Source: Clostridia bacterium
GTDB lineage: Bacteria; Bacillota; Clostridia; Christensenellales; UBA1242
Direction: 5' to 3'
DNA: 64,000 bases
NCBI GenBank assembly: GCA_045648025.1
Contig: JAZRNH010000045.1
Coordinates: 6,682 to 70,681 of the forward strand
In this document: positions 26,908 to 58,500 of the stretch, in pieces
Position numbering within the stretch: the stretch's first letter is position 1
How the letters are laid out: each line of letters starts with the position of its first letter
Position numbers and translations under genes: made by a program
Notes under the pieces: generated by a model
Databases searched by the model: none
Told to the model about the DNA's origin: nothing
What the model saw: the letters and a program-made list of their open reading frames with translations, nothing else

Positions 26908-27222
26908 ATGATTGAAGCAATTAAACAACAATTATCAATGTTTTCATACTTGTCAGCGGGATCAGGTGACGAAGTTTTAAACCCTATTTATGAAGGTTTG
27001 TCTTTGGTTGGTCCTTATGCACTTTCGGTAGTTGCCGTTCTTAGTATCTTTTACGGTATCTTTTTGGGTGTTAAATATGCCCAAGCAGAAGATGAGGCAA
27101 CAAAAGCTAATATGCAAAAAACACTCATAAATTTCATTATTGGTGCGGTAACAGTCTGGGTTCTTTTGGCAGTTCTTTATGCAATTCGTGAACCTCTTGG
27201 CAGGTGGATTACCGCTGGTTAA
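26908..27222 (+). CDS. small two-TM hairpin membrane protein, VirB2/TrbC-pilin-like (paralogue 1)
   Basis: 104 aa. Two hydrophobic helices joined by the charged loop GVKYAQAEDEATKANMQKTL. AGGTGG RBS. Paralogous to 27393..27740. Confidence 0.5.
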   Translation: MIEAIKQQLSMFSYLSAGSGDEVLNPIYEGLSLVGPYALSVVAVLSIFYGIFLGVKYAQAEDEATKANMQKTLINFIIGAVTVWVLLAVLYAIREPLGRWITAG

Positions 27223-27392: not shown

Positions 27393-27740
27393 ATGGAAAA
27401 ATTATTAAACATGGTTAGCTTTTTAGCAGAAGAATCTGAAATCGTAAGCGAAGCTTATGGTGCATTTATCAGAATCGTTAACATCGTTCTTCCAGTACTT
27501 ATGTCTATTCTTTTAGTTATCGGTATGTTCTATGGTATTCAACTTGGTGTTAAATATGCTAAAGCAGAAGAAGATGATGATAAGAAAAAAGCAAGAGGAC
27601 AACTTATCAATGTTATCGTTGGTATCCTTATTGCAATTCTCTTCGTAGCTATTGTTGAAATTGTATTGAACATGGACTTCGTTGCTAAATTATTCAGACA
27701 AGTTAAAGATACATACTCAGCTGCTACATCAGCATACTAA
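27393..27740 (+). CDS. small two-TM hairpin membrane protein, VirB2/TrbC-pilin-like (paralogue 2)
   Basis: 115 aa. Helix, then the loop GVKYAKAEEDDDKKKARGQL, then a second helix. AAAGGAGAA RBS. Codon usage looks highly expressed (ttc/atc/ggt/gct/ctt). Followed by two tandem terminators. Confidence 0.5.
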   Translation: MEKLLNMVSFLAEESEIVSEAYGAFIRIVNIVLPVLMSILLVIGMFYGIQLGVKYAKAEEDDDKKKARGQLINVIVGILIAILFVAIVEIVLNMDFVAKLFRQVKDTYSAATSAY

Positions 27741-41075: not shown

Positions 41076-43763
41076 ATGTCTAGAATGATTCCAAAATCAA
41101 CGAAAGTTAAAGTTCAATTCTTTAAAGGGTTTAACTTTTCGGATATTTTTGTAGTTTTATTTGCATTAATTATAGTGGCTCTTGCGATGACCACTTCTTT
41201 TGGCATTATTGCAAAATTAGTTATTTCAGGTATTACAGTATTCATTACTGCGGCTATGTTTATGAGCTTTGAACCAGGTGTTAGGTTATATAAACAAGTT
41301 GGTGACTTATTCAAATTTTTGTTTGGTATTAACACATACAAAAAAATGAAAGGCAACTCAAAAAGCAATGTTAAACAACTTTTGCCTTATGTTGGTATTT
41401 TAGAGCAAGAATACGATGAAAAACATCAAATCGGTATCATCGACTATAAAGAATATTTTGGTGCTGCTATCGAGGTTAACTCTATTCAATTCCATATGCT
41501 TTCTGAACAAAGACAAAATGCATATATTGAAACCCTTGAAAGTGCATTCAAAACAATTTCTGCAGAAGACCTTGGTGCGATTTATAAACTTCAAAGACCT
41601 ATGGTTTTTGATAATTACATCGACAACGAATGTAAAAAGAGAGAAGAAATTCTTGACTCAGTTCGTAACGGTTCAACAAATATTAACGAGGCTAGACCTA
41701 GACTTGAAATTGCCGAAGCTAGAATTAAGAACCTTGAAAACATGAATGTTGATAGTGAATTTCCTGTTTTTAAGGATCATATGTATATTGCTTTCTTCTG
41801 TACAAACATTAGAAACTTAATTCAAGTTGTAAACTTCGTAGCAAGTTCAATTGAAAGTGGTTCTGGTGGTTCAATTGAACCAAAGATTCTTGATAGAAAA
41901 CAAACTGCTATTTTCTTAAAGAGTTATTACACCACAAACTTTGACGAAAGAGAAATCAAAAACATCGATCCAAAAGATTTGATGGATTGGATTGCACCTG
42001 AAAAAGTTACATTTGGTATTAAAAGCTGTACCATTGACGGTAATGCTTATGCCTTATATGAACTTTCAGACTATCCACTTGCAGTTCCTAATGCATGGGG
42101 AAGAGCATTCTTCTCAGTGCCTGGTGCAAGAATATGTGTAAAATTTAAACCTGTTGAACAAGGTGAATCTGAAAAGCGACTTGATAGAGCCATTATGGAT
42201 ATCAGAATGCAAGCATCAGAAGGTAGTACAAAAGCCTCTGCGGTTATGGAAACACAAACTCACCTTGACACACTTACTGAACTTATGCAATACATTAAAC
42301 AAGGTTCAGAAATGCTCTTTGATACAAACATCTATATGATGATTGAAGCAGAGCAAAAGAAATCATTTAAAACACAAGTTATGAGAGCTGGTTTTAGAGT
42401 TTATGACCTTTTTGCAAAACAAAAAGAAGCATTTACAAACTGTAACATTTCTCGAAGAATGACAATCACAAGATTCGAAAGAGGTATCAACTCATCATCA
42501 CTTGCTGCTATATTCCCATTTGTTTCGGATGCTATTCAAGACCCTAAAGGTTTCTATGTTGGTATGAACAGTGAACCTGTATTCTTGGACTTCTTCCAAA
42601 GAGACAAAGAAAGAATTAACTCAAACATGGTTATCATGGGAAAATCTGGTTGCGGAAAGTCATTCTGTACCAAGTCAATCCTTGCTAACCTTGCTGCTGA
42701 TAACAGTAAAATCTTTATTCTTGACCCTGAAAAAGAATATGATATTATTGCTAGAAACATGTATGGAAAAGTTATCGATGTAGGTTCTGCTAGAGAGGGT
42801 AGAATCAATCCGCTTCAACCTAATGCTTCACAAGACGATGAAGATAGCGGCGGCGGAAATGTAGCTCTTGCCATGCACATGCAGTTCCTTGAAACCTTCT
42901 TTGGTATGATTCTTGATGGTATTACCATGGACGGTATGGAACTTTTGAACGAAGCTTTAAAAGAGCTTTATGCTAAATTTGGTATTAACAACTCAACCCA
43001 AATTGAAAAAGTTAAACCAGAACAATTCCCAATCATGCAAGACTTATATAACTATATTTGTGAAAAGCATGATAATGCTACTGACGACTATAACAGAAAC
43101 AACTATAAGATTTTAAAAATCTACTTAAACAAGTTTGCTGAAGGTGGTAGAAATGCTCAGCTCTGGAACGGCCCTTCAACAATTTCTTCAAAAGAAAACT
43201 TTATTGTATTTAACTTCCAATCACTTCTTGCTAACAATGCGGGTGCGGTTGCAAATGCACAGATGCTTCTTATCATGAGATGGCTCAATAACGAAGTTAT
43301 TAACAACAAAGACTATAATGCAAAGTTCCACACAAACAGAAAAATCATCGTCGTTATCGACGAAGCCCATGTATTTATCGATCCAAAACAAACTGTTGCT
43401 CTTGACTTCATGCAACAAATGGCTAAACGTATTCGTAAGTATGCGGGTTCACAAATTGTTATTACACAAAACATTAAAGACTTTACTGGTTCGCCTGAAA
43501 TCGCTAGAAAATCAACTGCGATTATCAATGCTTGTCAGTATTCACTCATTTTCGCACTTGCTCCTCAAGATATGAATGACCTTGTTATTCTTTATGAAAA
43601 AGCAGGTAAGATTAATGAAAAAGAACAAGATACAATTACAACCAACCCTAGAGGAAGAGCATTCTTGATGACTTCAACATATTCAAGAACCAATGTAGAT
43701 ATCCTCGTTAACGACAGGGTTCGTAACTTGTTCGAAAAACTTAGAGATGACATAAAAGTATAA
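41076..43763 (+). CDS. virB4: VirB4-family T4SS ATPase with N-terminal two-TM (VirB3-like) segment
   Basis: Walker A MGKSGCGKSF (42639-42662), FILDPEKEY, Walker B IVVIDEAHVF (43347-43370) and ITQNIKDF. N-terminal hydrophobic hairpin at aa ~20-66. GAGGAG RBS. Confidence 0.85.
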   Translation: MSRMIPKSTKVKVQFFKGFNFSDIFVVLFALIIVALAMTTSFGIIAKLVISGITVFITAAMFMSFEPGVRLYKQVGDLFKFLFGINTYKKMKGNSKSNVKQLLPYVGILEQEYDEKHQIGIIDYKEYFGAAIEVNSIQFHMLSEQRQNAYIETLESAFKTISAEDLGAIYKLQRPMVFDNYIDNECKKREEILDSVRNGSTNINEARPRLEIAEARIKNLENMNVDSEFPVFKDHMYIAFFCTNIRNLIQVVNFVASSIESGSGGSIEPKILDRKQTAIFLKSYYTTNFDEREIKNIDPKDLMDWIAPEKVTFGIKSCTIDGNAYALYELSDYPLAVPNAWGRAFFSVPGARICVKFKPVEQGESEKRLDRAIMDIRMQASEGSTKASAVMETQTHLDTLTELMQYIKQGSEMLFDTNIYMMIEAEQKKSFKTQVMRAGFRVYDLFAKQKEAFTNCNISRRMTITRFERGINSSSLAAIFPFVSDAIQDPKGFYVGMNSEPVFLDFFQRDKERINSNMVIMGKSGCGKSFCTKSILANLAADNSKIFILDPEKEYDIIARNMYGKVIDVGSAREGRINPLQPNASQDDEDSGGGNVALAMHMQFLETFFGMILDGITMDGMELLNEALKELYAKFGINNSTQIEKVKPEQFPIMQDLYNYICEKHDNATDDYNRNNYKILKIYLNKFAEGGRNAQLWNGPSTISSKENFIVFNFQSLLANNAGAVANAQMLLIMRWLNNEVINNKDYNAKFHTNRKIIVVIDEAHVFIDPKQTVALDFMQQMAKRIRKYAGSQIVITQNIKDFTGSPEIARKSTAIINACQYSLIFALAPQDMNDLVILYEKAGKINEKEQDTITTNPRGRAFLMTSTYSRTNVDILVNDRVRNLFEKLRDDIKV

Positions 43764-43788: not shown

Positions 43789-46700
43789 ATGGTTAGACTA
43801 TTTACATTTTTAATAAGTATATTTGAGTTTGAGCAGGGCTCTAGTTTTTTATCCATACCTTTATGGATAAAATTTATTGGAAGAGGTATTGCAAACTTAT
43901 TCAGCCAAATTATGAACTTCATTCTCAAAATGGCTTGGGTAATCATCAAGTTTATGCTTGGTGTTATGGAAGCCTTTGAATATATGATTAATTCATTTAT
44001 TGGCATTGATACTTCTGTTCAAGATATGTATGATTTTGTATATAATTCTGAAAACGGAATCAAACTTCTTGATGTACTTTCAACCTCACTTAAAGCTATG
44101 ATGGCTTTGAGTATCGTATTTTTAGTTATTTTCACAATTTTTGCTATGATTAAGCAAGAATATAACAATGCATTTAGCGGTGGCAAAAAAGGTAATGATA
44201 AAAAACCAATCATTACTGGTATGTTTAAGAAAATGTTGTATATTGTTTTACTTCCAATTACAATGATGTTCATCATTACTGGTGTTAACTCAATTTTAAC
44301 CTCATTTTCAAGAGCTATGACTGGCGGTGAAGATGTAACAATTGCAGCACAAGTGCTGTCAACATCAACATACGATTCAAACAAGTATCGTTATTATGCA
44401 CAAGAAAATAAGAGAATTCCAATTATCATTAAGGCATATGATCCAAATCAATATGCTCCAGATGAAAACGAACTTCTTGCAGAAAAGATTAAATCGGTTG
44501 CAGTTCAAGATGTTTTAAAAACAACCGTTTCTAGTATGTCAAGTAAGAACTTACTTACATTTAACGAAAGTGTACAATACAAAAACAACAAATTATCAAA
44601 TAGTGTTGAATATGGTCAAGGTGAATGGTATGAAACATTTATTTGTACTGCTGAGCAGTATCAAATTATGGCAGACTTCATCGATTATGCTCAAAAACAT
44701 AATTTAAAATACTATATTAAACCTACTGATTCAGAAGATATCGATTGGAGATATGTTGATTCAGCAGTCTTCAATGCCAGTGATATATCATTAAAAATCA
44801 ATTATCGTGATGCTAATGATATGAACGGCGATGGCAAAAAAACAGACTCTTATACAGTTGAATTTTCAACAAGTTTTGAAGTTACTTCACCAATCTCAAA
44901 TGCTATGGAAACAATCTTAGCACTTCTTGGTGTTGATAGCAAAAATGAAAAGTATTCTGAAAATATTTTCAAAACAATGGAAAGAGATGAAAACTATGTC
45001 AATGTTGTAAACTGGGCAAATGAAAAAGTTTTGATAAAACTTTCAAATGACTTTGACTTAGATGACCCTTCAAATTGGACAAGAATGGACCAACTCATAA
45101 TTTATGAGTATTACCATTTTTCTTCAAATAACACCTTCGGAAAGTATTCAATTGCTGACCTTGTTAAAGGTGTTGAACTTGAAGCAAGTCTTCTTGTATA
45201 TCGTGAATATTATCCAGTTGGAAATGCTTACTCAGAAGAGAGAACTATTCCTTGTGTAAAGATCAATGGTTCATATTATAGAATTTGGCAAGATCCAGAA
45301 GATCAAAAGACTGATAAATATGGCAATATTTATTATGAACTTGAAGATTCTTTAACAGAAGAAGACACACTCAATTTCTTAAATAATGATTATTCATTAA
45401 TTCAAGAAGTGGGAACTGAAACCGGAAAACTTAAACTTAGTGGTAACTTTGAAGCAAATGACCCAACCACTTGGGAATATTATGATCAAATTATTGTTTA
45501 TGAATTCTATAAAGATTTAACATCAAACAATAAACTTTATAGCTATAACTTCAATCAATTTAAAGAGGGTATTGAAGTTCCTGTTTATCAAATTACAAAG
45601 AGAAAATTCTCTGATAAAACAGTTGCTGATAGAGTTGATGATGAAACCGGTTATTATCTCGAAATCAATGGCATCTATTATGAGGCTACCAAAAAAACTA
45701 CTGGTAGTTCAAGTGATCCAGATTATGGAAAATGGTTCCTTAGTGATGCTACAATTGATTATTTAATAGAAGCAAATCCATTTAGTGATACATATTATTA
45801 TAACTATGAAATCAACCTTGATGGTGTGACTGATGGTGAAGGTGAATTTAATGATATTTATGGTGATAAATATGGTATTAGCACCAGCTTAGAATCAACC
45901 AAAAAAGCAACAAACTTTATTGTTGACAGAGATACAACAACAAGATATGTTGACTTCACACCACTTGATGAAAGTGATACTAATTTCTTAAAATACAGCA
46001 ACTTCTCATTAATGCTTTCTAAAAACTTTGACCATAACGAAGTTGATACTTGGACTTTTAAAGATTATTTCATTTTCTATTTATATATTAACTATAACCA
46101 AATTGCTGGAAGACTCGGACTAGAATCCCTTAAACTCACCGGTGTTAGTGGTGAAATCGGAACAATTGAACTTGAAGGAACATCTGCTACTAAGTATGTT
46201 TATAAAGTTAAATATGGTTCACACATCTTAACAACCGCAGATATTTATTGTGAACATTGTGGAAGATTCTACACAGAAGCTCAACTTGTTGATAGTAAAT
46301 GTCCTACCTGTGACATTAGAATTGATGACCAAGCAGGAAGAACTCTTGATTTATGTTTATATCTTGATATTGATGGTATTAGAAAGATTTCTAATATGCT
46401 CATTAACAATACACTTGATAGCACATATATCAAACAACACAACTATACAGATAAGGGTATTGGAAACACACTCTTTATTGATGTTGATTCAAATGATTTG
46501 GTTGTTGCAGACACAGAAGTTAGAGAGTTTAAACTCAGTGAAGGATTCAGCCAATTATATCCAAACAACTGGACCGTTTTAGATTATATTTTATATTCAT
46601 TTAGCAACGAAGGTGTTATTAATCAAATTCCAAAAGATGAGGCTGGAATTGAAAGTTATAAATACTCAGCTGTTGTTTATAAAATATTTGATGGCGAAGT

Positions 46701-49700
46701 TTTAAAAGATATAATGTATAAATTTGGTTCATCAACCAGAGGAAACGAACAATATTTAAGTTTAGAAAATGTCAAGGCATTGAAAGATGCAAATGGAGAT
46801 TCTTTAAACTATAGAGATGTTGATGACTTTTTGGAATTAAATTTCTTAGATTATGTTGCAAAAGCAAAAGGTATGCATTCTAATGAAATTATTTCTAACC
46901 AAGATGGAATTATTAACAACTTGTATAATGATTTGATTGAGTATGTTTACTCAACAGATAAAATCATGGAAGAGATTGTTAGACAAAAAGCATTCCATAT
47001 TGGTGCAAATGAATATGATTTATACAGCAGTGTATTATCATATACATATTCAAATCCATCTGTTAAGATTGATGATTTATCAACTTGGACATTGATGGAT
47101 GCATTAATTTATATTGCAACTGGAACTGTTAGCTTAACATATACAGCACCAGTTTATAGACATTTAAACAAAAATTACTTTATCGTTGGAAATTATGCTG
47201 TTGATATAACAACATCAACCAGTCCATTTAAGGGAACACTTTCAAGTGCAAACAAGATTACATCAAGAAATTCAACATTTGATGGTTCTGGACCACTTGC
47301 TGATTATGTTACAGCAAACTGTGCAGATTATATCTTTGATGAAGCTTACTTTACAGGCAAAAAGGTAAAGAAATATTCTAATGCTAGTTTCACATATAAA
47401 AATGAAGATACAGCATATACAACATTTGATGCAATATATGAATATTTAATGGGAACAGCAATTGCATTAGATGGAACTGTTTCATTAGATGCTTTCATTG
47501 AAGGGGAAAATGTTTATTTAAAAACAACAAAATCTGGTGTAAATAAATACATCTTAGTAAGCGAAGCATACAACGATTATATTTCTGTTGAAAAATCAGG
47601 AAAATTTACACTTTCAAGCACAGCAAAAATTGCAACAAAAGAACCAACTTCTTATGTTGCATTTGATAATGATCTTGATACAACAACATTTAATGCTGAC
47701 AATTTACATATTAAACCATTAGATGCTCTTATTTATTTTGATACTGGGGTAATCGAAAAGAAATCACTTAATGTTTATAAATATGTAAACAAAGACGGCA
47801 ATGAAAAGAAATATGTATATTCTGGAAAAGGATATATTGAAATTAAAGATAACAATGAAGTTAATATTATTAATTCAAGCTTAGACAACTTAACAAACTC
47901 TGACCATGAGTTATTAACTTTATTATATTCAACATATTATCAACAATATTATAAAACTGCTGTTGACAATATTCTTTCAGATGCAGTTGTTAAAAATGCT
48001 ACATTTGAATATGTTAGACCTGTTGACGGTGGTGGTATTCCAAAAGATGTAACAATCACAAGAGTTTCACCATTTGCATTAATCTTCTCAAAATTAGGTC
48101 TTATTGACTTAACATTGTCAAGAGATACCGTTACAGGAAAAATTGTTAGAACAGCAAGAAAAACTTACTTCTATTATGAAGGAACAACTGCAACTAGCAA
48201 TGAAGTAACAAAGATTTATGTTGATGTTACTGATATTGGAACTGTTGGTTATAAACCAGGTGATGAAACAAACTTATTCTTGTTTGACAACAATTCATCT
48301 GTTTATGAAATGGTTTTAAGATATATGCTTATGAGTAATTCAGATGGCGGTACTGGTTATTTGAATCAAAACACTTATGCTACAGCATATAAGACATTTG
48401 ATGCAGAACTTGAACCATATTTTGAAGATAACTATTTGGCTGCAGATGCAGTAAATACAACACTTTCAAATACATCTGGTTTCACACTTACAGCTGCAAC
48501 ATCTTGGACTAATTTCAACACACTTTATTACTATTTAACAAATTCATCTAATATCTCAACAATGCAAAACATATATACAGATAAAGATGGATATATGTAT
48601 GTAAAAATTCAAAAGAATAGTGATGTAACTTATGTTAAAGTTGGTAAAGATGGAAGTTATTATACAAACACATTGTTTGATCATTATACTTTTGCATCAG
48701 CAGCTTATCAACTTGAAGATGCATCAACTGGAAATTATAGTCCACTTGGAATTATTGCTTATAAACAAACTGCAATAAAAAATGGAACTATTCAACTTAT
48801 TACTTATGCAGAAAACTTCTGTCCAACTTGTGTTAGAGAATTGTCATCTGGTCAAGTAAATGCAGATAAAGAATGTACTACTTGTCATACAAAGGTTATT
48901 CCAACACAATTCCATTTTATTAAAAATAACTATTATGATGAATTTATTTGTGTTTATAACTTAGACAATGCTTCACTTAGAAATGCAACATCTTATGATA
49001 ATTATTATTACAATTTTAGAGGCGACACAGATGCAAATGGAAATTCAATTGTAAAGGACTGGACAATTTTTGATTATTTGATTGCTTATATCAATGCATA
49101 TAGCAAAGAATATAAGGTTTCTCAAAATATTCAAATTTATGGTTCAAATGCATACATTTCTGTTGATGGTTCTGATAATGGCAAATTTATCAACTTGTCA
49201 AAACTTGGCATTTTGTCAGAAGATGATGTTAATGATATTTATGATTCTGTTGGATATGATAAACTTGCATCAAGGCCATCAGGATATAGTGGCTCATATA
49301 ATTCATCTGCAGTTGAGGCTTTATATAATGAAAAATATGCAAGTTTGGTAAAAACATCAACACAATTAGATCTTGCAAATATTAATGTTTATAATCCAAA
49401 AGCTAGTGAAACAACAATCAAATATATTAAATCAGAAGAAGTTACCGCATTTGATATTATTTATTCAAAACTTAAAGGGGTAGGTTTTGCGGCAAATAAT
49501 AGTGAAATTGAAGTATCAACATTTGTTGATATTACCAGCGGAACAAAATATATTTTAATTGAAAAAGATACAACAGATTATTATGTTGCTGTTGGTGAAG
49601 ATCTTTACTTTGGTTCAGCTAATCCTGATATGATTGAACTTGAAGTTAATTTAAACCCAGTGTTTGATTATGTTTCAACAGGTGCTTATGATGTTTTTGA

Positions 49701-52700
49701 TGATGATAGAAAAGCATCTAGTCCTGTTCCAGGAATTGGTGATATTGACAAAGTAAGTTTCTCATCATATTTCCAAATTAATGATTATTCAACTTGGATG
49801 CTTTCAGATTTTGTAATTTATTACATATTTAATGAAAGTCCAGAACAATTTAATATTGATGGAAATCTTGATTCAACAAAGAACTTCCAAGAACTTGTTA
49901 ATAAGGGATATTCTCCAGCTAAAAATTATAAATACTTCATTGAAGATGAATTTGGAAATTCAATCTTAAAAGATGTTATTTGGATTGGTATTGGAGAAAA
50001 AGATGATGGTATTGCTGTTGACAGAACATTATTCACAAAATATTATGCTCAACAACTTGCTAACATTCAATTCTTAGATAAAACCTCTGTTGATTATAAA
50101 ACTTATAATTATGATAAGGGTATTGAACTTTCAATGGATTTTGGTGCAAATCAAAAGTTTACAACACAATCTATCAAGCAGTTCTATACCACAAAGAATA
50201 CTGTTTTAAATGCAAATCAATTCACTTATGACAGTTATTATTATTATGATTTAGACAGTGGAAAGCTCACACAAACAGACAATAACCTTCTTAGTGTTAA
50301 TGCAAACTTGATGAGTAATATTGCAGATGGAAAGGCAACTGTTTCAGATGCTCTTAACATTGCACTTTCAGACGGCTTTATTATTAGTGAGCCATCAACA
50401 TGGACATGGCTTGACTATATTATTGTTTATGAATTTTCAAGAACAAATATAAGACATAACTATTTTGAAGGTATGGCTTTTGAAAATCTTAGAACAAAGA
50501 GTTATGTTCCTGTGTTTATTGATGGTTCTGAAATTGTTATTGAGCTTAACGGAAGATATTATGATTTATCCGTAATTAAGCATGACACAGCCGCAACAGA
50601 CAAACTTACTCAAATTAGAAATAGTTATAAACTTATGAACGACACAACTGTTAGCGATGCCGTTACATTAAAGGCAGATGGTGATAATGGATTTGATTTC
50701 AAGACATTATATCAACAATTTGAGTATAATGTTCAAAAGAGTGAATATTCATTAGATTATTCAAAAACACCAAACAGCATTTTATATGAATATGCTGATC
50801 CAACTGATCCTTATGCAGATCAAATTATGTATTATATGACACTTAACACAGATATCATTGATACATATAAGGTTAACATTGCATCTCTTAACACAAATGG
50901 TTTCTATGCATTCACCAACATTGTTAGAGAAGTTAGTTGGCCACAAAAATTAATGAATGACCTTCAAGTGTTATATCCAGATTTGAACTGGGCAACACTT
51001 ATTGCTACTGATGGTTGGCTTGATACTCTTGGAGAATTTACATCAGCACAAGCTTCTGGGGAATATGTTTCTGAGGGCAACTCAGCAAACATTACAGCTG
51101 CTGGTTTGGTTCTTTCAGAATTCTTTGTATCAGTTGCCAAAGAAATGGATCCATTTGCATCAGTTCATAGCTATGAATATCAACCAATATTTAGTGAATC
51201 AACAATCAAGGCATTAATGCTTGCTATGCTTGGTGAAGAACAATATTATGATTTATCAACACAAGCTTCAGTATTTATTGAAATGTTTAACAATATGTTC
51301 TTGCCAGTGCTTGAAGATATTGCAAAAGAGAGAGGAATTTCAATTGTTGATGGAAAAGTTGATAACTTCTATATCAGTGTTTATAAAGCATATCTTGCAA
51401 CTGTTCTTTTAGGTTCAGATATTGGCGAATATTTCTATAAGATTGCAACAAGAGTTTATGCTCAATATACAATCTTTGATTCACTTGCAGCTGCAAGTGG
51501 TGACTATGCTGCTTATATGGATTATATTAATTCATTAAGCAATCAAAATGGTGAAAAAGTAACATCGTTTATGTATTCATCATTCCACGAACTTGCTATT
51601 TATGAAAACAGCTTCTCTGGAAACAAAAACCCAACATTTACATATAACTTTGAATCTTCACTTGCATATTTCTATGGCAAAAACTTCACATACGGAAAAT
51701 TGGCAGGGGAAGGCTATGATTTATCGGGTGTTCAAGATAAGACAAGCAATGATGCTATTGTTACTGCAAGAGATGTCAAAACAATTATGAAAAAGGCATC
51801 AAACTTTAACAACCTCAACAAACGTATTGATGACACTTATAGAGATATTTATAGCAAGGGTGGAAGAGTTAGTGATACTAATGTAAGTGGTATTTATTGC
51901 TTTATGTTTGATGTTTATTGGTCAATTCATCAAGTTGTTCAAGGCAAAAATCAAAACGATCCAGTTTACTTAGAGTATTATCGTGAATATATTATGGGTG
52001 AAGTAAAGAGATGGCAAACCGTTGCTAACGAAACAATTGACGGAACATCATCTTATATTCCAGATAACTCAAAATATAAATTAGCACTTAATATCAACAA
52101 AATCTTTGCTATGACATCTGTTGTTGGTCTTTACCTTCCAGATGGAAAGAGTATTGATGTTGAAGAAGAAGGCAGTTTATTTGATAAAATTAATTCAGCA
52201 TTAGATAGTGCTTCAATTACAAATGTAGGTGTTATTACTGACACATTTAATAACACAACAGCTTATACAGAATTCAAGAGAGCTTATAACAATGTATTTG
52301 GTCAAGGCCAAATTATGAACATCTCTGACATTATGGATGCTTCAAATGAAGGTAATACCGACAAATGGCATCAATTAGTTCAAATGAGAGATGATCTTGG
52401 AATCTTGGTTGAAGAATTAAACCAAGTTGCAAGTATGTCTGGTGAAGGCTATGTTAAAGGTGACTCAACAAGAGGTTACCGTGCACCAAGATATGACAAA
52501 GAAAGATATACTGATGCTTATAATGATTTGCAATCTTTGTATGGTTATATTGATACATACATTTCAAACCAAATTATTTTGGATAAGATCACAAAATCAA
52601 GTATCACATTTACTCTTGCTCAATTTGGTAAAAACTATGTAACTGATGGTTATACATTCTCATTCGAAAATAAGTCTTACACAATGAAGGCAACAGCTTC

Positions 52701-55494
52701 TGCTGAAAGACTTGCTGAATATGTTTATGGTGGTGCATTCCTTGTTAAATATGGTGTATCTCCAAAATATACAAATGACAAGTATCACGGATTTGTTGAA
52801 AGTTATAAGGTTTATGATTCAAATTCTGGTTCAACAAAAACTAGACTTAAAGTTTGGACAGAACTTAGAACATTTGTTTCTGAACTTGCAAACTATACAG
52901 CAAAATTATATTACTTAAGTAATATGAATGACCTTTCTAAAAATATTAGTGATGGCATTTTATTAACAGATACCATTTATCAAGGAAACTCTGATGATGG
53001 CGGCACACTTGTTTCAAAAACATTAGAGCAAATGATTATTGAATATTTGCTCACTAGTGAAATTGAAGCAGATACATTCTTGAGATTATCATTTGGTGAC
53101 ACTGTTGCAACACTTGATGCATTAAGTTGTCCAAATGATGAATTTAAAGCACTTGCATATTATCTTGAAGGTAATTATGCTGGTGATGACGGTGTTGTTG
53201 AAAAAACTGGATATGGTGACTACATTATTGATATTGGCGAAGGTGATGCAGCTGTTAGATTTACACTTACAGGTGCAAATAAAAAGGCATACATCAAAAA
53301 CTATTGGGATTATGTTGGAAGTTCAGCATATAACTCAAATGGTTATTATAATGATGGTTCAAACAATGGTGTTGATAGATTACACCTTATCTTCAAAAAG
53401 ATAATTTCATATTTGATTGTTACTGAAGAGGCAGAAGAATCAACTTCTGAAAAAGCAATTAATCTTGATAATATCACATTTAAAGAATTTAGAAAGATTT
53501 TAATGCAAGCTCTTAGTGATTATCAAAAGAACCCAACAGAAAATGATATTCAAAATTCAAACAGATATATCACATTATTCAACTTAATTAGTTCACAATT
53601 TGCTTACACATATAGTTATACAAATGATGATGGTGAAACTATTCATGTTCAAGCTGGAACAACTGTTAACCCATTATTTGTTTCAAAAGTGAATCCAGAT
53701 ACAGGATCAGCTATTGATAAAAACATTTCTGCAAAAACTGCTGGAAGAGTAAATTATGTTTATGAAAATCCATCAGGTATTAAAGAAATAAGACCTCTTT
53801 ATGGTGAATTTTCTATTGATATTCCAACAAGAGATATCATTTTAACATTAGCTGGAATTGAAAACCGTCCAATTGAAGAACTTGTTGGTCTTGAATATGA
53901 AAGCCTTTATGATAAAGGTGGAAACTATGACGAAGAAGATGGTGATACATTCATTATTTGTTCATATGACGAAAGTGAAGGAAAGTATTATCCAGTTCTT
54001 GGAAGAAATACCGGTTGGAGTGTTTCTGATAAAGGTTTTGATTATATCGACAACATCGGCATTGATATTAAAACATCTTATTATGCACCAGATGGACATT
54101 ATCCAATCATTGCAAAAGGTGTAATCGATGCTTCGGGTTATCCAACCGCAATCAAACAGGTTGACGGAAAGATTTTATTCTATAGAACAAATATCACAAC
54201 TGCACAAGATGTCGGCGAAAGTGCTTTGGGTCAAACAAGAAGCGGTGGTGAAGTTACAACCATTGGATATACAAAATATACCACTGGTTTCTGGTCTGCT
54301 ATCGGAAACAGTGATAAAGTTGCTATGTTCACTGGAAACTCTTCAATTGACTCAATGGCAAATTCTGATTTCCAAGTTAATTTCATTCAAACGACACAGC
54401 AATATTCAATCACAAATGCTGAAGATTTTGAATCAATTGCAGTTCTTGAAGAATTTTCTGCATTCTATACACTTGAATCAAGACAATTGTTCTTATTCTT
54501 GCTTGGTTTCTCAGTGTTACTTCCAATGCTCTTTAGTGCATCTGCAACGGTTCTTAGAAGAATTCTAGATCTGATATTCTTGGTGTTGATGGGTCCAATG
54601 GCGATAGCTTCGCTTTCACTTGGAGCTGATCAAAATCCAGATGGAAAGAGTAAGATTTTTGATACCTGGAAAACCTATATGACTCAGACACTGCTTCATG
54701 TGTTTGGTTATATCATTGCATTTAATGTATATTCAATTTTGATGTCAACAATTCTCAAGATGGATCTTGTTGGTCAAAGCACAATGGATGCAATTTATAG
54801 AATCGGTGGCTTATCACAATTTGTTACTGAAAATAGTATTAATGCACTTTTAAGATATGTTTACATTATTGCTGCGGCTGCTGCAATTAAAACATCAGCC
54901 GACCTTCTTGTTAACATTGTTACTGCTGGAAAAGTTACCAATGCATTCCAAACACCAATGGGCGGAGATGTTATGGCTGACATTAAGAAAATGGCAGAAC
55001 AACTCAAAGATGCATTTGATGCGGTTAAAGGTATTGCTAGTGGACAGGCTGCAACAATGCTTAAAGACTTTGCTATGGAAACGGCTATGAAAGCGATTCC
55101 TGGTGGAGCACTTATTGGCAAAGCGGTCAATGCTGGTCAAAACCTGATTTCACAACAAAAAGGTAAAGCCTTAGAAAAATCGGCAATTTCAAACGGAGTT
55201 TCACCAGAAGTTGCTAAGAGTATGTCAAAACAATTTGTTGACAACGAAATGAAACAAAGACAAGCCAAGAGAGAGCAACGAGCTGCAAATGCTAACCAAT
55301 TCTCTAAGACATTTGGAGGCGATGCAATGTTTAAGGCACAAGAAAACGGTGCACTTACAAAGCGACAACAAGCCGCAAAGAAAGAGGATGCAGCAGCAAA
55401 GAAAAAAGCTGGAAAAGCAGGAAAAGCTGCAAAAGGAAGCAAGGGCAGTAAAGGTGGCTCATCAAAGGGCGGAAAGAAAAAAGGTAAAAAATAA
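43789..55494 (+). CDS. giant (3901 aa) polytopic membrane protein, paralogue of the 4301-aa protein. Has a ~3350-aa Tyr/Asn/Asp/Thr-rich modular ectodomain and a short Lys/Gly-rich tail.
   Basis: Uninterrupted 11,706-nt ORF starting 25 nt after the virB4 stop, with an AGGAGA RBS. The N-terminal 3-helix module and the C-proximal TM module (aa ~3565-3720) align by eye with the other two proteins. Confidence 0.6.
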   Translation: MVRLFTFLISIFEFEQGSSFLSIPLWIKFIGRGIANLFSQIMNFILKMAWVIIKFMLGVMEAFEYMINSFIGIDTSVQDMYDFVYNSENGIKLLDVLSTSLKAMMALSIVFLVIFTIFAMIKQEYNNAFSGGKKGNDKKPIITGMFKKMLYIVLLPITMMFIITGVNSILTSFSRAMTGGEDVTIAAQVLSTSTYDSNKYRYYAQENKRIPIIIKAYDPNQYAPDENELLAEKIKSVAVQDVLKTTVSSMSSKNLLTFNESVQYKNNKLSNSVEYGQGEWYETFICTAEQYQIMADFIDYAQKHNLKYYIKPTDSEDIDWRYVDSAVFNASDISLKINYRDANDMNGDGKKTDSYTVEFSTSFEVTSPISNAMETILALLGVDSKNEKYSENIFKTMERDENYVNVVNWANEKVLIKLSNDFDLDDPSNWTRMDQLIIYEYYHFSSNNTFGKYSIADLVKGVELEASLLVYREYYPVGNAYSEERTIPCVKINGSYYRIWQDPEDQKTDKYGNIYYELEDSLTEEDTLNFLNNDYSLIQEVGTETGKLKLSGNFEANDPTTWEYYDQIIVYEFYKDLTSNNKLYSYNFNQFKEGIEVPVYQITKRKFSDKTVADRVDDETGYYLEINGIYYEATKKTTGSSSDPDYGKWFLSDATIDYLIEANPFSDTYYYNYEINLDGVTDGEGEFNDIYGDKYGISTSLESTKKATNFIVDRDTTTRYVDFTPLDESDTNFLKYSNFSLMLSKNFDHNEVDTWTFKDYFIFYLYINYNQIAGRLGLESLKLTGVSGEIGTIELEGTSATKYVYKVKYGSHILTTADIYCEHCGRFYTEAQLVDSKCPTCDIRIDDQAGRTLDLCLYLDIDGIRKISNMLINNTLDSTYIKQHNYTDKGIGNTLFIDVDSNDLVVADTEVREFKLSEGFSQLYPNNWTVLDYILYSFSNEGVINQIPKDEAGIESYKYSAVVYKIFDGEVLKDIMYKFGSSTRGNEQYLSLENVKALKDANGDSLNYRDVDDFLELNFLDYVAKAKGMHSNEIISNQDGIINNLYNDLIEYVYSTDKIMEEIVRQKAFHIGANEYDLYSSVLSYTYSNPSVKIDDLSTWTLMDALIYIATGTVSLTYTAPVYRHLNKNYFIVGNYAVDITTSTSPFKGTLSSANKITSRNSTFDGSGPLADYVTANCADYIFDEAYFTGKKVKKYSNASFTYKNEDTAYTTFDAIYEYLMGTAIALDGTVSLDAFIEGENVYLKTTKSGVNKYILVSEAYNDYISVEKSGKFTLSSTAKIATKEPTSYVAFDNDLDTTTFNADNLHIKPLDALIYFDTGVIEKKSLNVYKYVNKDGNEKKYVYSGKGYIEIKDNNEVNIINSSLDNLTNSDHELLTLLYSTYYQQYYKTAVDNILSDAVVKNATFEYVRPVDGGGIPKDVTITRVSPFALIFSKLGLIDLTLSRDTVTGKIVRTARKTYFYYEGTTATSNEVTKIYVDVTDIGTVGYKPGDETNLFLFDNNSSVYEMVLRYMLMSNSDGGTGYLNQNTYATAYKTFDAELEPYFEDNYLAADAVNTTLSNTSGFTLTAATSWTNFNTLYYYLTNSSNISTMQNIYTDKDGYMYVKIQKNSDVTYVKVGKDGSYYTNTLFDHYTFASAAYQLEDASTGNYSPLGIIAYKQTAIKNGTIQLITYAENFCPTCVRELSSGQVNADKECTTCHTKVIPTQFHFIKNNYYDEFICVYNLDNASLRNATSYDNYYYNFRGDTDANGNSIVKDWTIFDYLIAYINAYSKEYKVSQNIQIYGSNAYISVDGSDNGKFINLSKLGILSEDDVNDIYDSVGYDKLASRPSGYSGSYNSSAVEALYNEKYASLVKTSTQLDLANINVYNPKASETTIKYIKSEEVTAFDIIYSKLKGVGFAANNSEIEVSTFVDITSGTKYILIEKDTTDYYVAVGEDLYFGSANPDMIELEVNLNPVFDYVSTGAYDVFDDDRKASSPVPGIGDIDKVSFSSYFQINDYSTWMLSDFVIYYIFNESPEQFNIDGNLDSTKNFQELVNKGYSPAKNYKYFIEDEFGNSILKDVIWIGIGEKDDGIAVDRTLFTKYYAQQLANIQFLDKTSVDYKTYNYDKGIELSMDFGANQKFTTQSIKQFYTTKNTVLNANQFTYDSYYYYDLDSGKLTQTDNNLLSVNANLMSNIADGKATVSDALNIALSDGFIISEPSTWTWLDYIIVYEFSRTNIRHNYFEGMAFENLRTKSYVPVFIDGSEIVIELNGRYYDLSVIKHDTAATDKLTQIRNSYKLMNDTTVSDAVTLKADGDNGFDFKTLYQQFEYNVQKSEYSLDYSKTPNSILYEYADPTDPYADQIMYYMTLNTDIIDTYKVNIASLNTNGFYAFTNIVREVSWPQKLMNDLQVLYPDLNWATLIATDGWLDTLGEFTSAQASGEYVSEGNSANITAAGLVLSEFFVSVAKEMDPFASVHSYEYQPIFSESTIKALMLAMLGEEQYYDLSTQASVFIEMFNNMFLPVLEDIAKERGISIVDGKVDNFYISVYKAYLATVLLGSDIGEYFYKIATRVYAQYTIFDSLAAASGDYAAYMDYINSLSNQNGEKVTSFMYSSFHELAIYENSFSGNKNPTFTYNFESSLAYFYGKNFTYGKLAGEGYDLSGVQDKTSNDAIVTARDVKTIMKKASNFNNLNKRIDDTYRDIYSKGGRVSDTNVSGIYCFMFDVYWSIHQVVQGKNQNDPVYLEYYREYIMGEVKRWQTVANETIDGTSSYIPDNSKYKLALNINKIFAMTSVVGLYLPDGKSIDVEEEGSLFDKINSALDSASITNVGVITDTFNNTTAYTEFKRAYNNVFGQGQIMNISDIMDASNEGNTDKWHQLVQMRDDLGILVEELNQVASMSGEGYVKGDSTRGYRAPRYDKERYTDAYNDLQSLYGYIDTYISNQIILDKITKSSITFTLAQFGKNYVTDGYTFSFENKSYTMKATASAERLAEYVYGGAFLVKYGVSPKYTNDKYHGFVESYKVYDSNSGSTKTRLKVWTELRTFVSELANYTAKLYYLSNMNDLSKNISDGILLTDTIYQGNSDDGGTLVSKTLEQMIIEYLLTSEIEADTFLRLSFGDTVATLDALSCPNDEFKALAYYLEGNYAGDDGVVEKTGYGDYIIDIGEGDAAVRFTLTGANKKAYIKNYWDYVGSSAYNSNGYYNDGSNNGVDRLHLIFKKIISYLIVTEEAEESTSEKAINLDNITFKEFRKILMQALSDYQKNPTENDIQNSNRYITLFNLISSQFAYTYSYTNDDGETIHVQAGTTVNPLFVSKVNPDTGSAIDKNISAKTAGRVNYVYENPSGIKEIRPLYGEFSIDIPTRDIILTLAGIENRPIEELVGLEYESLYDKGGNYDEEDGDTFIICSYDESEGKYYPVLGRNTGWSVSDKGFDYIDNIGIDIKTSYYAPDGHYPIIAKGVIDASGYPTAIKQVDGKILFYRTNITTAQDVGESALGQTRSGGEVTTIGYTKYTTGFWSAIGNSDKVAMFTGNSSIDSMANSDFQVNFIQTTQQYSITNAEDFESIAVLEEFSAFYTLESRQLFLFLLGFSVLLPMLFSASATVLRRILDLIFLVLMGPMAIASLSLGADQNPDGKSKIFDTWKTYMTQTLLHVFGYIIAFNVYSILMSTILKMDLVGQSTMDAIYRIGGLSQFVTENSINALLRYVYIIAAAAAIKTSADLLVNIVTAGKVTNAFQTPMGGDVMADIKKMAEQLKDAFDAVKGIASGQAATMLKDFAMETAMKAIPGGALIGKAVNAGQNLISQQKGKALEKSAISNGVSPEVAKSMSKQFVDNEMKQRQAKREQRAANANQFSKTFGGDAMFKAQENGALTKRQQAAKKEDAAAKKKAGKAGKAAKGSKGSKGGSSKGGKKKGKK
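45061..50439 (+). repeat. ten or more divergent copies of a protein-level module marked by [LS]S..F...[DE]P[ST].W[TE]..D..I.Y.[FY]
   Basis: Motif copies at 45061, 45457, 46036, 46558, 47071, 47701, 48499, 49051, 49780 and 50386. Examples: DDPSNWTRMDQLIIYEYY, NDPTTWEYYDQIIVYEFY, SEPSTWTWLDYIIVYEFS. Spacing is 132-266 aa. Confidence 0.75.
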
Positions 55495-55520: not shown

Positions 55521-58500
55521 ATGGGGTTAATTAATATGGCGACAAAAATTCCAACTTTAATGATGAAGTTATCTTCATCTATTTTCCCGACCGGTTCTTC
55601 AAGTTTCTTGGCGGCAGCGGGAACGGATTCGTTCTTGTCGGTGGTATTCAACTTTTTAGCCAAAATTTTCTATTTTGCGGCTAAATGGATGTTATATCTG
55701 CTTGATATTTTGTATGCATATATAAAAGAACTTTGCGGTCTTAATATGAGTTATGAGTCTTTAGAAAAAATGGTTTCAAAAGAATCTGACTTTGTATTTA
55801 ATCTTTTGATTACATCAAGAGAAACAATTACTCCAATTATTAAAAGTTTAATAGGTCTTGTTATTGCACTGGTTATTTTCTTTGCAATTTTAGCGGTTAT
55901 TAAAACCACTTTCAATTCAATAAAACAAGGTGCAACAGCAGACATTAAGGGTGTATTTAGAAACACATTTAAAGCATTTATCTTGCTTGTTATTACACCA
56001 ATGCTCGCAATTGTTGGTATTGTTGCTGCAAACACAATCTTAAAGACATTATATAATGCAACAAACCCTTCAGGTTCGACAAGCATAAGCACTCAGTTGT
56101 TCTCAGCTTCTGCAACATCTGCTAGTAGTTATCGAATATATGCTCAAAATGGTTTAAAAATTCCGATAACTTATGATTTTACCGAACAAGAAACAATTTT
56201 AGAATATTATCAAAATCATCCACTTACTGATGATTTTAGAGAATATGTTGTTTCCGACAAAAACCTTATATATACAAATTATAAAAGGTTGCAAGACGGA
56301 AATTTTGATGAATTTATATATCTTAACGATGCCATTTCTTCTGGAACAGGTGTAACAGAAAGTTATGTAACAAGATATTATCAAGCTTATGATAGACATG
56401 CTGAATCTGTTAAACCAGTTTCTCCATATCATGCATATAAGAGAATTCAGGCTTATAGATCAGAATATCTTGTTATGGCAGATGTTATTGATTATTGTAT
56501 AAATTCAGGCAATACTCTTTATTTAAAAACAATACAAGAAGTTCTTGATTCTATAGCTGCTGTGCCAGATGACAGTGTGTTTGAATCATTTGTAACATTG
56601 TTTGATATTGAATTTTTAACAGCAGATTTAAAAACTTATGTTTTGAGTTCGATTGTAACAACTAATGCAGATGATGTAAACAGCACATACAACTCGTACA
56701 AACAAATCTATAATCACGATAGTTGGGAAATTATTAGATTTAACAGCACATATTATGATGCAAACGAAAGCACTGAGCCTACAAGAAAAATGGTTATTCA
56801 ATATAACCATGTTAAAGATGCTACAGATGAACTTGATGGTGCAAAGTATATAGTTGCTAGTGAACAAATTAAAACCGTTTATGATGCTTATTCAAGCAGA
56901 GATAAACAATATCCTTATTTCTATCCAATAACTCTTGGTTATGGAACTGGAAGTGGTGGTGCATTTGATACAGACTTTATTCAAATGGGTCAAATTGTTG
57001 CTGCAAAAGGTATTTTCAGCGAAGGAAAATATCCAACAGCAATTAGACAAAGTGATGACAAAGCTGAACTTCAATTTTATAGAGAGACAATCTCACAAGT
57101 AAATGTGGGTGATGAAAGTGGTATGGCTGGAGGCTCTCTTGCAACTGAAGAAAAGAAGAGTGGTATTGCTGGATTCTTCCAAAAACTTAAAGCAATGTTT
57201 AGCCCCAAAGTTAATTTAAGTGTTGACGAAAATGCGGTTATAACGGCTTATGGTATTGAAGAAGTTCAAGTCAATATTTTAACGGCTGGTAAACTTAATA
57301 TTAGCTATATGTTCTCAGATGCAATATCAAACGGTCTTGGCGGTATCATGACTGCTGCTTCAAGAGCAGTGTCTGGTCAAGACAATGTTGAACAAATTGG
57401 TATCTTTGGATTAAACTTAGATAACTTATTCATACCAAACAAACTTAATATATTAGTTCTTATTGTTGGTGCATTTGTAATGATTAAAATCACTTTCCAA
57501 GCGGTTTTTGCACTTATTAATAGGTCTTATGAACTGTTCTTAACGATTATAGTTTATCCAACGGCCTGTGCAACAATTCCTCTTGATGAAAATGGTTTCC
57601 AACAGTGGACGATAACTTATACCCAGCGACTGTTCTCAACATACGGTCTGATTCTGGGTCTGAACTTCGTTATTATGTTGTTCCCAATAATCAGTGAACT
57701 TGAAGTGTTTACGGCGGGTGAAATTGCACTTTCTAAACCTTTGATGAGATTTAGAAATCTGTTCTCACTTGGTGGACTGATAACGATTAGTTTGGAATTT
57801 TTGGCAAGTTTCTTAAACCTTGTTGTTGTAATTTTATTTGAACTTGTTGCATTTACACTTCTTGAAACAATTCCAGAAACAATTTCAAAAATCACAGGTG
57901 TTTCTGCAGCTCAAGGCTTCGACCCAATTGAAGCTATGGGTAAGGTTTTGAATGTTATTATGGGTGTTGTTAAAACCGTCGGCTCAAGTGGTTCGGGTGT
58001 AATTTTAGGTATATTCGATGTCCTTGGTGCATTTGTAGGTTCTAAAAAGTCAAGAGATAAAGCAAAGCAAAGAATTAAGCAAAAGGTTAAAGATAAAACT
58101 GACAAGCTTAAAAAAGGTGCGAAATCAATGATTCCTGGTAAAGGTCTTGTTGATTCAATAAAAGATAAGCAGCATGTAAAACAACAAATGGGTGCTCAAA
58201 AAGAAGCTATGAACAAACTTAAAGATGCTATGGATAACAAAGATAGTGATCCAAAAGCTGTTCAAGATGCTATGAGCAATTTGTTACAAGCTCAACAAAA
58301 AGCAACTGCTGCAATTAATGACCCTTCTGGTTCAAGAGCTGCGGCTGAATCTGAAAAGAAACAAAATGAAGAGGCGGGTCTTGATGAAGATGGCGAAGTT
58401 TCTTCAAGAGAAGGTGAAGAGAACGATGACCAAGAAGGAGCAGATCTTTCACATAGATCAAAGAGTTCTTTGAAGAAAGAAAAGAAGAGAGCGAAGGCTG

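Follow-up and report, generated by a model that had tools for sequence, protein, structure and literature searches.

A divergent module array in the predicted extracellular loop of a giant, putatively VirB6-like protein at a type IV secretion locus of uncultured Clostridia

Extended VirB6-like proteins are reportedly a class of Alvarez-Martinez and Christie. Here we analyze a gene whose product probably works like a member of that class, a 3,901-amino-acid (aa) open reading frame (ORF; 43789..55494, + strand) in a type IV secretion system (T4SS) cluster of a Clostridia bacterium (NCBI GenBank assembly GCA_045648025.1, contig JAZRNH010000045.1, positions 6,682 to 70,681 of the forward strand). 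This stretch of 64,000 nucleotides is referred to as the window, and all nucleotide positions are counted from its first letter. The ORF encodes a giant polytopic T4SS-associated membrane protein in which a very long hydrophilic region, predicted to be extracellular, contains a string of divergent copies of one small domain, here called the module. Among described proteins, extended VirB6 subunits have a VirB6 core to which large hydrophilic domains, central or C-proximal and of unknown role, are added (PMC12857230). In Anaplasma, Ehrlichia and Rickettsia they occur as tandem paralogues, VirB6-1 to VirB6-4 (PMC7648143, PMC12857230), and Anaplasma VirB6-4, which is 4,322 or 9,935 aa long, carries surface-exposed C-terminal tandem repeats (PMC7648143). 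The clostridial protein resembles these Rickettsiales subunits in being polytopic (at least five transmembrane (TM) helices), in its giant hydrophilic regions, in the tandem paralogues beside virB4, and in having a variable, repeat-bearing region that is surface-exposed there and predicted to be exposed here. It differs in its monoderm Clostridia host, in a central loop between TM blocks in place of a C-terminal extension, in repeats that are old, diverged (~15-30% identical) and apparently folded alpha/beta domains where the Rickettsiales genes have near-identical 3' tandem repeats, and in leaving the Pfam TrbL/VirB6 model unmatched.

Two further T4SS types and one group of surface proteins invite comparison. 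In mycoplasma integrative and conjugative elements (ICEs), the polytopic membrane protein CDS16 is regarded as a likely VirB6-like component (PMC12857230, PMC6030558), and gene order and architecture suggest that it is linked to the clostridial protein via the MMCAP2_0566 and Mbov_0396 families. The C-terminal TM block of this protein and of two paralogues aligns with MMCAP2_0566, a model of 322 positions, over positions ~175-318 (E 3e-10 to 4e-21), and in both systems pilin-like small ORFs precede the TM proteins and VirB4/TraE belongs to the same cluster. In its overall make-up the locus resembles the minimal mycoplasma ICE apparatus (PMC6030558). The mycoplasma models, however, span ~300 positions and lack a giant ectodomain, the scores obtained here lie under their cut-offs, and the locus is, as far as visible, not on an ICE. 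The chromosomal T4SSs of the monoderm Patescibacteria/Saccharibacteria, with their arrays of VirB2-like pilins (PF18895; PMC12857230, PMC12102498), are alike in having VirB4, VirD4, VirB6-like and T4SS_pilin-type proteins and no evident relaxase; here, by contrast, the genomes are metagenome-assembled genomes (MAGs) of Clostridia with a GC content of ~30%, and reviews report no giant ectodomain arrays for the Patescibacteria systems. The repeat arrays of Gram-positive surface proteins (Big/Ig-like, Cna-B, FIVAR, cadherin-like, SH3b) also consist of serial small extracellular domains in variable copy number. They differ in that no significant sequence or structure match links them to the present module, in that the module is predicted to be alpha/beta and not an all-beta sandwich, and in that a membrane-embedded loop stands here in place of a signal peptide and LPXTG architecture. 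Giant surface proteins with serial arrays are familiar, as are extended VirB6 proteins; the present module and the architecture that holds it are described in none of the literature and libraries that were searched.

The array was noticed through a short motif. From the letters of the window, the first-pass annotation had listed ten copies of a signature, recurring every 132-266 aa between 45061 and 50439, and had taken them for the mark of a novel domain repeated ten or more times. All ten peptides are present, at aa 417, 549, 742, 915, 1093, 1305, 1568, 1753, 1995 and 2192, and they lie together with an eleventh copy inside the one ORF at 43789-55494 (+). The measured spacing is 132-263 aa; the end coordinate of 50439 is correct, but the first peptide begins at nucleotide 45037, and 45061 corresponds to aa 425, 8 codons further in. 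The core pattern W-x3-[DN]-x2-[ILVFY]2 occurs 9 times, against 0.48 expected and a maximum of 5 in 2000 shuffles of the same protein, and a stricter form of the motif occurs 5 times where shuffling predicts 0.02. BLAST of the whole protein against itself returns only the identity match. With overlapping segments as queries, similarity among copies 1, 2 and 10 spans 95-117 aa (29-31% identity) and runs from ~12 residues ahead of the motif to ~100 past it; pairwise identity among the protein's own copies is about 17-26%. A hidden Markov model (HMM) whose seeds were copies 1, 2 and 10, once iterated over the family, recovers copies 1, 2, 3, 4, 9 and 10 at independent E-values (iE) of 5e-41 to 5e-8 and copy 5 marginally (iE 8.5e-4), and never reaches copies 6-8.

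Profile-profile comparison with hhalign, for which the family alignment was cut into one orthologue profile per copy, resolves how the copies are related. Probabilities among copies 1, 2, 3, 4, 9 and 10 are 94-99.8%. A second set of links runs through copy 5 (c5-c8 97.8% over 158 columns, c5-c6 93.5%, c5-c7 92.7%), with only 9-42% for c6-c7, c6-c8 and c7-c8, and the two sets are joined at 84-89% (c4-c5, c5-c10, c7-c10, c8-c10); three control regions of the same protein stay below 3%. By these profiles, the copies fall into a tight group (1, 2, 3, 4, 9 and 10) and another one, linked to it, made up of copies 5-8. An HMM seeded with the orthologues of copy 5 and iterated at an inclusion threshold of 1e-3 finds, at iteration 5, all ten copies and an eleventh at aa 1195-1305 (5b), and loses copies 5b and 6 again at iterations 6-7. 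Run on the six-frame translation of the whole 64-kb window, it matches those eleven places alone. The same scan gives no match for the module in the two paralogous giant proteins encoded nearby, the best value being iE 0.017 for the 4,301-aa paralogue.

Segment BLAST, hhalign and iterated HMMs thus concur that the ectodomain holds a string of at least ten divergent copies of one domain, as had been proposed, and self-similarity beyond the short motif is present over 95-158 aligned columns (94-99.8% by hhalign in the main group). The count of ten was right in that all ten are real, and too low in that more exist: 5b is significant, and 6b and 8b probably add to it. Copy 6 lacks the tryptophan of the motif, and Trp-less helices of the form 'D-x-I-Y-x-x-L-x-G' lying between the ten listed copies are additional modules. 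The array, aa 405-2324, therefore numbers 11-13 modules of ~110-150 aa each, 11 of them significant and 6b and 8b suggested by structure or weak profile matches. At the DNA level it shows no repetition beyond the 48 nucleotides that encode the motif (60-73% identical) and no tandem repeats. Without DNA-level repeats, the duplications must be ancient; recent tandem duplication is ruled out on the same ground. The two subgroups, the Trp-less copies, the far longer loop around the array and the protein's identity as a T4SS membrane subunit had gone unseen at first; the repeat string itself had been seen correctly.

The motif had been likened to a hydrophobic strand-turn-strand, which two AlphaFold2 models, each built from an alignment of orthologous sub-sequences, do not bear out; both predict strand-loop-helix. 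Model 1 covers aa 395-740 (modules 1-2; 43 sequences; mean predicted local distance difference test (pLDDT) 83.9, predicted template modelling score (pTM) 0.59). In module 1 it has a strand at 413-416, a loop ending in W430, a helix at 432-443 (R-M-D-Q-L-I-I-Y-E-Y-Y-H), a short helix at 455-460 and strands at 462-471, 485-492, 495-501 and 516-518, and in module 2 the elements follow in the same order, with the helix at Y564-K575. Model 2 covers aa 1078-1560 (26 sequences, pLDDT 87.1, pTM 0.78) and contains four units with the element order of model 1, whose helices at 1102-1111 (5), 1212-1221 (5b), 1310-1319 (6) and 1428-1435 (6b) are each followed by three to seven strands. In both models the Trp sits in a loop two residues ahead of the alpha-helix and D-x2-I-x-Y lies inside the helix. 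The predicted module is accordingly a small alpha/beta domain composed of a short strand, a Trp-ended loop, a helix and then three to six strands arranged as beta-hairpins, and the motif W-x3-D-x2-I-x-Y is modelled as a Trp-capped amphipathic helix packing on a small sheet. Structural likeness from module to module was judged by the order of secondary-structure elements together with the profile results. For the four modules in a row of model 2, the pTM of 0.78 suggests that their mutual packing is fixed.

The array begins with module 1 (aa 405-540, 45001..45408, + strand, as are all features of the protein given below), whose motif helix is R432-H443 and which is recognised at HMM iE 5e-41 and modelled at pLDDT ~90. 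Module 2 (aa 541-711, 45409..45921; iE 2e-29) aligns with copy 1 at an hhalign probability of 99.8% over 118 columns, and in the AlphaFold2 model its folded core extends to ~aa 651 and gives way to a lower-confidence linker. Module 3 (aa 735-891, 45991..46461; iE 4e-19) has hhalign probabilities of 95-96% to copies 1, 2, 4 and 10, and module 4 (aa 904-1062, 46498..46974; iE 3e-13) of 94-97% to copies 1, 2, 3, 9 and 10 and of 88% to copy 5. Module 5 (aa 1081-1194, 47029..47370) opens the second subgroup, with 97.8% to copy 8 and a predicted strand at aa 1084-1088, helix at 1102-1111 and hairpins after it. The extra copy 5b (aa 1195-1305, 47371..47703; iE 2e-5 on the protein alone, 7e-4 in six frames), detected at iterations 4-5 of the copy-5-seeded search and gone at 6-7, has the Trp-less helix 'FDAIYEYLMG' at aa 1212-1221 and the strand-helix-hairpin order in model 2. 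Module 6 (aa 1306-1397, 47704..47979; iE 1.5e-5 alone, 5e-4 in six frames) has lost the Trp from its helix 'LDALIYFDTG', matches copy 5 at 93.5% and is modelled with the helix at aa 1310-1319 and hairpins. Module 6b (~aa 1400-1520, 47986..48348) is a probable extra copy by its secondary-structure order in model 2, with a helix 'FALIFSKL' at aa 1428-1435 and a family consensus of W-x-P-L-x-x-I-L; its profile signal is weak (hhalign 27%, HMM not significant). Module 7 (aa 1555-1665, 48451..48783; iE 3e-10) matches copy 5 at 92.7% and copy 10 at 85%, and module 8 (aa 1745-1869, 49021..49395; iE 5e-14) matches them at 97.8% and 83.8%. Module 8b (~aa 1885-1939, 49441..49605; 'AFDIIYSKLKG'), at a sub-threshold iE of 0.0019 and a family occupancy of 0.23, is a possible degenerate extra copy and falls within the 158-column alignment of copies 5 and 8. 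Module 9 (aa 1985-2110, 49741..50118) is found by the first HMM at iE 5e-8 and by the more sensitive one at 4.5e-7, with 95-97% to copies 1, 2, 3, 4 and 10, and module 10 (aa 2188-2324, 50350..50760; iE 5e-23, 99.1% to copy 1) is the last clear copy.

Two CxxC...CxxC segments resembling zinc ribbons interrupt the predicted extracellular array. By its Cys positions, one is inserted in module 3 (aa 821-841, 46249-46311); the other (aa 1678-1699, 48820-48885) directly follows module 7, in a region with Pfam zinc-ribbon hints at aa 1674-1707 (E 0.01-0.03). A homologue (P0048) has a similar segment elsewhere, between its modules 1 and 2 ('CKDCNEKYSKDLAECPNC'). Such sporadic insertion of zinc-ribbon-like segments into an ectodomain is unusual.

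The module belongs to no described family. For the whole protein, Pfam at E <= 0.1 returns only the two sub-threshold zinc-ribbon hints, and 61 diverse modules searched singly against Pfam match 14 families by one module each at E >= 9e-4, a pattern which marks these matches as noise. The repeat families Big/Ig-like, Cna-B, FIVAR, cadherin, RHS/YD and PbH1 match neither the whole protein nor any of the 61 modules (E <= 0.1). NCBIfam and PHROGs yield nothing for the ectodomain, and the absence of a PHROG match rules out a phage origin. No chain among the PDB sequences is found with the single protein (phmmer) or with the module profile, and the whole-protein profile gives one chance-level PDB match outside the array (ribosome hibernation promoting factor, E 0.023, aa 3419-3494). 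The two- and four-module models were compared by Foldseek with the solved structures of PDB and the predicted viral ones of BFVD, with no match at E <= 0.001 (best E 0.3, 0.14 for PDB, 0.025 for BFVD); a likeness of model 1 to MHC class I platforms carries no weight (E 0.3-1, TM-score ~0.1, root-mean-square deviation ~26 Å). The original impression that the repeat matches no known family was therefore well founded, and as regards structure it holds for PDB and BFVD.

When the 131-position module profile (A5) was run with HMMER against 1.84 billion representative proteins at E <= 0.001, 56 proteins matched. Two of these are spurious, showing no BLAST similarity to the clostridial protein (an ankyrin-repeat protein, P0104, and an RTX-like protein, P0107), and about half of the remaining 54 were already known family members. 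In BLASTP, 28 of the 29 new matches align with the protein in the matching regions, the longer ones including flanks; P0109 (E 9e-4) matches module 10 only. A 96%-identical relative has 10 matched stretches in this search. Within the reach of HMMER, the module appears confined to this one protein family. Giant proteins described elsewhere are of other kinds: the surface proteins of the 'Hodor' megaplasmid are ruled out by their lengths (7,300 and 2,600 aa), S-layer/MBG domains and sortase anchoring, and the Clostridia giants in the giant-gene survey of West-Roberts et al. differ in having RCC1 and beta-propeller repeats.

The family comprises 78 homologues of 2,181-4,315 aa, all unnamed and none with a Pfam domain. 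A scan of one genome per species located 24 loci, each in a MAG of uncultured Clostridia of human, ruminant or other gut origin. Mean identity to the window's protein is ~50% in the proximal ectodomain, ~60% at aa 2401-2600, 47% in module 1, 14-28% in modules 2-10 and 4% in module 8b. Module 1 is the sole module retained by every family member and the only one in forms of ~2,200 aa; forms of ~2,850 aa have modules 1-4 (partly 5), 9 and 10, and those of ~3,500-4,300 aa have in addition the block 5b-8b of the second subgroup. With the sensitive HMM, individual proteins have 1 to 12 modules, a number that correlates with protein length (r = 0.66). The array is the fast-evolving, copy-number-variable part of the loop. 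The neighboring VirB4 is 80-92% identical to that of the window in most loci and 54-72% in six (79-94% across loci L001-L018), and the best-matching segment of the giant protein is 31-50% identical across those loci; the rate contrast between the two proteins inside one operon is very large.

A hydropathy scan divides the protein into three TM helices, a hydrophilic ectodomain of ~3,400 aa (aa 171-3566), and three to four further TM helices. The N-terminal TM block (helices at ~aa 41-62, 103-121 and 145-170; 43909..44298) is followed by a membrane-proximal conserved ectodomain (aa 171-404, 44299..45000), which has a mean family identity of 50% and no module signal (hhalign control <3%). By sequence, the loop after TM1 is acidic and the loop after TM2 and the C-terminal tail are Lys-rich; the positive-inside rule therefore places the ~3,400-aa stretch outside the cell, and we regard it as probably extracellular. 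The array takes up only the N-terminal ~55% of this predicted extracellular loop. The remainder, the post-array ectodomain delimited by the conservation profile (aa 2325-3566, 50761..54486), has no recognisable domain in Pfam, NCBIfam or PDB searches. It includes, just past the array, the family's best-conserved stretch (aa ~2380-2620, window 50920-51650, ~60% identity), which may be a functional head positioned by the modules. This stretch reads 'VNWPQKLMNDMQV-YPDLNW-TLIATDGWLDTLGEFTS...GNSANITAAGLVLSEFF' and matches nothing known. The C-terminal TM block (aa 3567-3711, 54487..54921) has clear helices at 3567-3585, 3595-3613 and 3634-3656 and one doubtful helix.

The genes around the ORF are those of a T4SS. 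Directly upstream is a VirB4/TraE-type ATPase (41076..43763, +; Pfam P-loop_TraG E 8e-19, AAA_10, DUF87), and two further large proteins, of 4,301 aa (28045..40950, +; NCBIfam MMCAP2_0566 E 4e-21) and 1,354 aa (55521..59585, +; NCBIfam), are paralogues of the array-bearing protein by BLASTP. A VirD4-type coupling protein (24641..26605, - strand; Pfam T4SS-DNA_transf E 1e-43, TraG-D_C, TrwB_AAD_bind) and two VirB2/pilin-like small ORFs (26908-27222 and 27393-27740, +) complete the recognised set, giving the order VirD4, two pilin-like ORFs, 4,301-aa protein, VirB4, array-bearing protein, 1,354-aa protein. The small ORFs match Pfam T4SS_pilin (PF18895; E 1e-5, 2e-4) and the NCBIfam Mbov_0395 pilin-like model (E 9e-5, 3e-9), all slightly under cut-off; pilin-like genes of monoderm T4SSs have only recently been recognised. 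VirB4 lies directly upstream of the giant gene in 21 of the 24 loci, and the order 4,301-aa-type paralogue, VirB4, giant protein, 1,354-aa-type paralogue is kept in all 16 that span the four genes.

The three large proteins share their N-terminal TM block (E 1e-13 to 1e-14) and a second one: in BLASTP, aa 3559-3784 of the array-bearing protein correspond to aa 1149-1365 of the 4,301-aa protein, and aa 3361-3660 to aa 420-729 of the 1,354-aa protein (E 1.5e-10). The lengths between the blocks differ (~470 in the 1,354-aa protein, ~975 in the 4,301-aa protein, ~3,400 here) and the ectodomains are unrelated. In all three proteins the second block matches the Mycoplasma ICE models of NCBIfam, MMCAP2_0566 (NF045848) and Mbov_0396 (NF045889). 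The array-bearing protein scores 39.7 bits on the former (E 3e-10; cut-off 90) and 27.3 bits on the latter (E 2e-6; cut-off 70), and its paralogues reach 74-76 and ~40 bits, still under the curated cut-offs. Since these E-values are significant and the scores are under cut-off, the protein is best described as a distant relative and not as a member. Its aa 41-200 also resemble the conjugation TM protein pLS20_p028 (NF045890; E 1e-7) under cut-off, at 31.1 bits against 150, over profile positions 17-150 of 377. As in VirB6-type proteins, there are 6-7 predicted TM helices and the gene stands directly beside virB4 in a T4SS cluster. With the identity of its TM core coming from such sub-threshold matches, we describe the protein as one that probably 'works like an extended VirB6', without assigning it to that family.

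The cluster is flanked in the window (22324-63937) by rpsT and a racemase upstream and by lspA, rluD, tig and clpP downstream. The downstream order lspA, rluD, two small ORFs, tig, clpP, clpX recurs in genomes whose giant proteins are 49% and 34% identical to this one (loci L025, L026 and L027), and no integrase or relaxase was recognised within the window. The locus looks chromosomal and vertically inherited in its clade, rather than like a recently mobile ICE.

We propose for the array the role of semi-rigid spacer or stalk and contact surface in a T4SS membrane subunit, with its length set by the number of modules, and put the probability of this interpretation at about one half. The TM blocks would sit in the translocon beside VirB4 and VirD4, and the string of modules, rigidly packed, would act as a spacer or stalk. 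By this means the conserved distal ectodomain would cross the thick monoderm envelope and project past it, and the string itself would expose a variable face at which the cell wall or a partner cell could be contacted. The array would thereby supply the reach and adhesion which elsewhere come from dedicated adhesins, VirB5 or VirB8-type wall subunits, and the number of modules would set the reach. Several observations weigh against this proposal. Pfam TrbL/VirB6 (PF04610) matches neither the protein (E <= 0.1) nor its two paralogues (E <= 1), and together with the NCBIfam scores under cut-off this makes the VirB6 assignment indirect. No binding partner or ligand site was identified for the array, and the case for a 'rigid rod' is the pTM of a predicted model. 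The ectodomain is anchored at both ends, and the array may double back or pack into a compact cap; whichever interpretation is taken, anchoring at both ends implies a loop or fold-back geometry and not a free fibre.

A possible alternative, to which we give a distinctly smaller weight, is that the array is an adhesin or a determinant of host or partner specificity, whose modules bind another bacterium or host mucus. The T4SS would then serve contact-dependent exchange in an epibiont- or parasite-like interaction, and not plasmid conjugation of the classical kind. The chromosomal site lspA-rluD-tig-clpP-clpX, shared by genomes with strongly diverged giant proteins, would suit such a role, as would the window's lack of a recognised integrase or relaxase and the position of the array as the fastest-evolving part of the protein; Patescibacteria cannot grow as epibionts without their own chromosomal T4SS, which encodes pilins (PMC12857230, PMC12102498). 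Yet no ligand-binding signature is present, and a relaxase could be hidden in a 757-aa ORF of the cluster or in the 3,000-aa tail of the 4,301-aa paralogue. Adhesion also overlaps with the proposed spacer and contact role rather than excluding it.

It is unlikely that the modules are instead wall-binding repeats for peptidoglycan or a secondary polymer, SH3b-like hairpin barrels with which the array would staple the machine into its own thick wall and not extend it outwards. This idea draws on faint local Foldseek matches of model 2 to endolysin SH3b domains (5udn_B, probability 0.35, 63 columns, 21% identity; 5udm_B, 0.21; 7bng_A, 0.14), on the SH3 fold of 2 of the 14 chance-level Pfam families (Tudor-knot, E 9e-4; SH3_KIN17_C, 0.03), and on a locus without a recognisable VirB1-type hydrolase or VirB8-type wall subunit. 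The SH3b matches are, however, far from significant (E 0.19-1.1, TM-score <= 0.25, 56-63 columns), model 1 gave none, and each of the two Pfam families was matched by 1 of the 61 modules. The strong divergence of orthologous modules moreover fits poorly with a conserved self polymer.

An equally doubtful, bolder view, drawn by analogy with Patescibacteria, is that the modules are a new fold family from which a T4SS builds its extracellular conduit or an organ of contact. This T4SS would be non-conjugative, inherited vertically and kept at a fixed chromosomal site by a whole clade of uncultured gut and rumen Clostridia. Such a system might serve an obligate cell-to-cell interaction, for example epibiotic acquisition of nutrients or DNA; the components that usually span the wall or act as adhesins would have given way to the three giant VirB6-like paralogues, with a reach adjusted to the envelope of the partner through the number of modules. 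Finally, the notion that there is no domain repeat, and that a short amphipathic motif recurs by convergence or chance in a protein rich in Y, D, T, S and N, fits the weak single-sequence BLAST similarity of most pairs outside the motif and the failure of copies 6, 7 and 8 to reach significance with the first HMM, but it is effectively refuted, and a most improbable reading, given alignments of 95-158 columns against <3% for controls of the same composition, HMM matches at the expected places only in six frames, the shuffle test (9 against 0.5) and an identical element order in the AlphaFold2 modules of both subgroups.

How monoderm T4SSs span the wall and make contact with a partner is only now under study, and this family offers a natural experiment in which the same membrane core occurs with 1, ~6 or ~12 modules at a conserved locus of abundant uncultured gut bacteria. 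The definition of a new domain family, with a profile and two confident models, would allow ~2 kb of 'dark' sequence to be annotated in ~100 giant proteins and flags a type of T4SS that Pfam TrbL and the NCBIfam cut-offs miss. If the function is that of a passive spacer only, the result is a useful annotation and not a new principle.

Some features of the locus lie outside the array. Adjoining VirD4, the 757-aa ORF (22324-24597, -) has no Pfam, NCBIfam or PHROGs match and is a candidate for an unrecognised relaxase or an accessory protein. The 4,301-aa protein continues for ~3,000 residues past its second TM block without a recognisable domain. The array-bearing protein itself ends in a Lys/Ala/Gly-rich tail (54922..55494), predicted to be cytoplasmic, in the bulk of which (aa 3760-3901) K makes up 20%, A 18% and G 13%, and near its end a 9-nucleotide tandem repeat, AAAAGCTGG x 3.6 (55404-55435), encodes KKAG-type repeats. 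Among the housekeeping genes upstream of the T4SS cluster, at a distance of 7 kb, is a gene for a ComEC competence channel (16311-17852).

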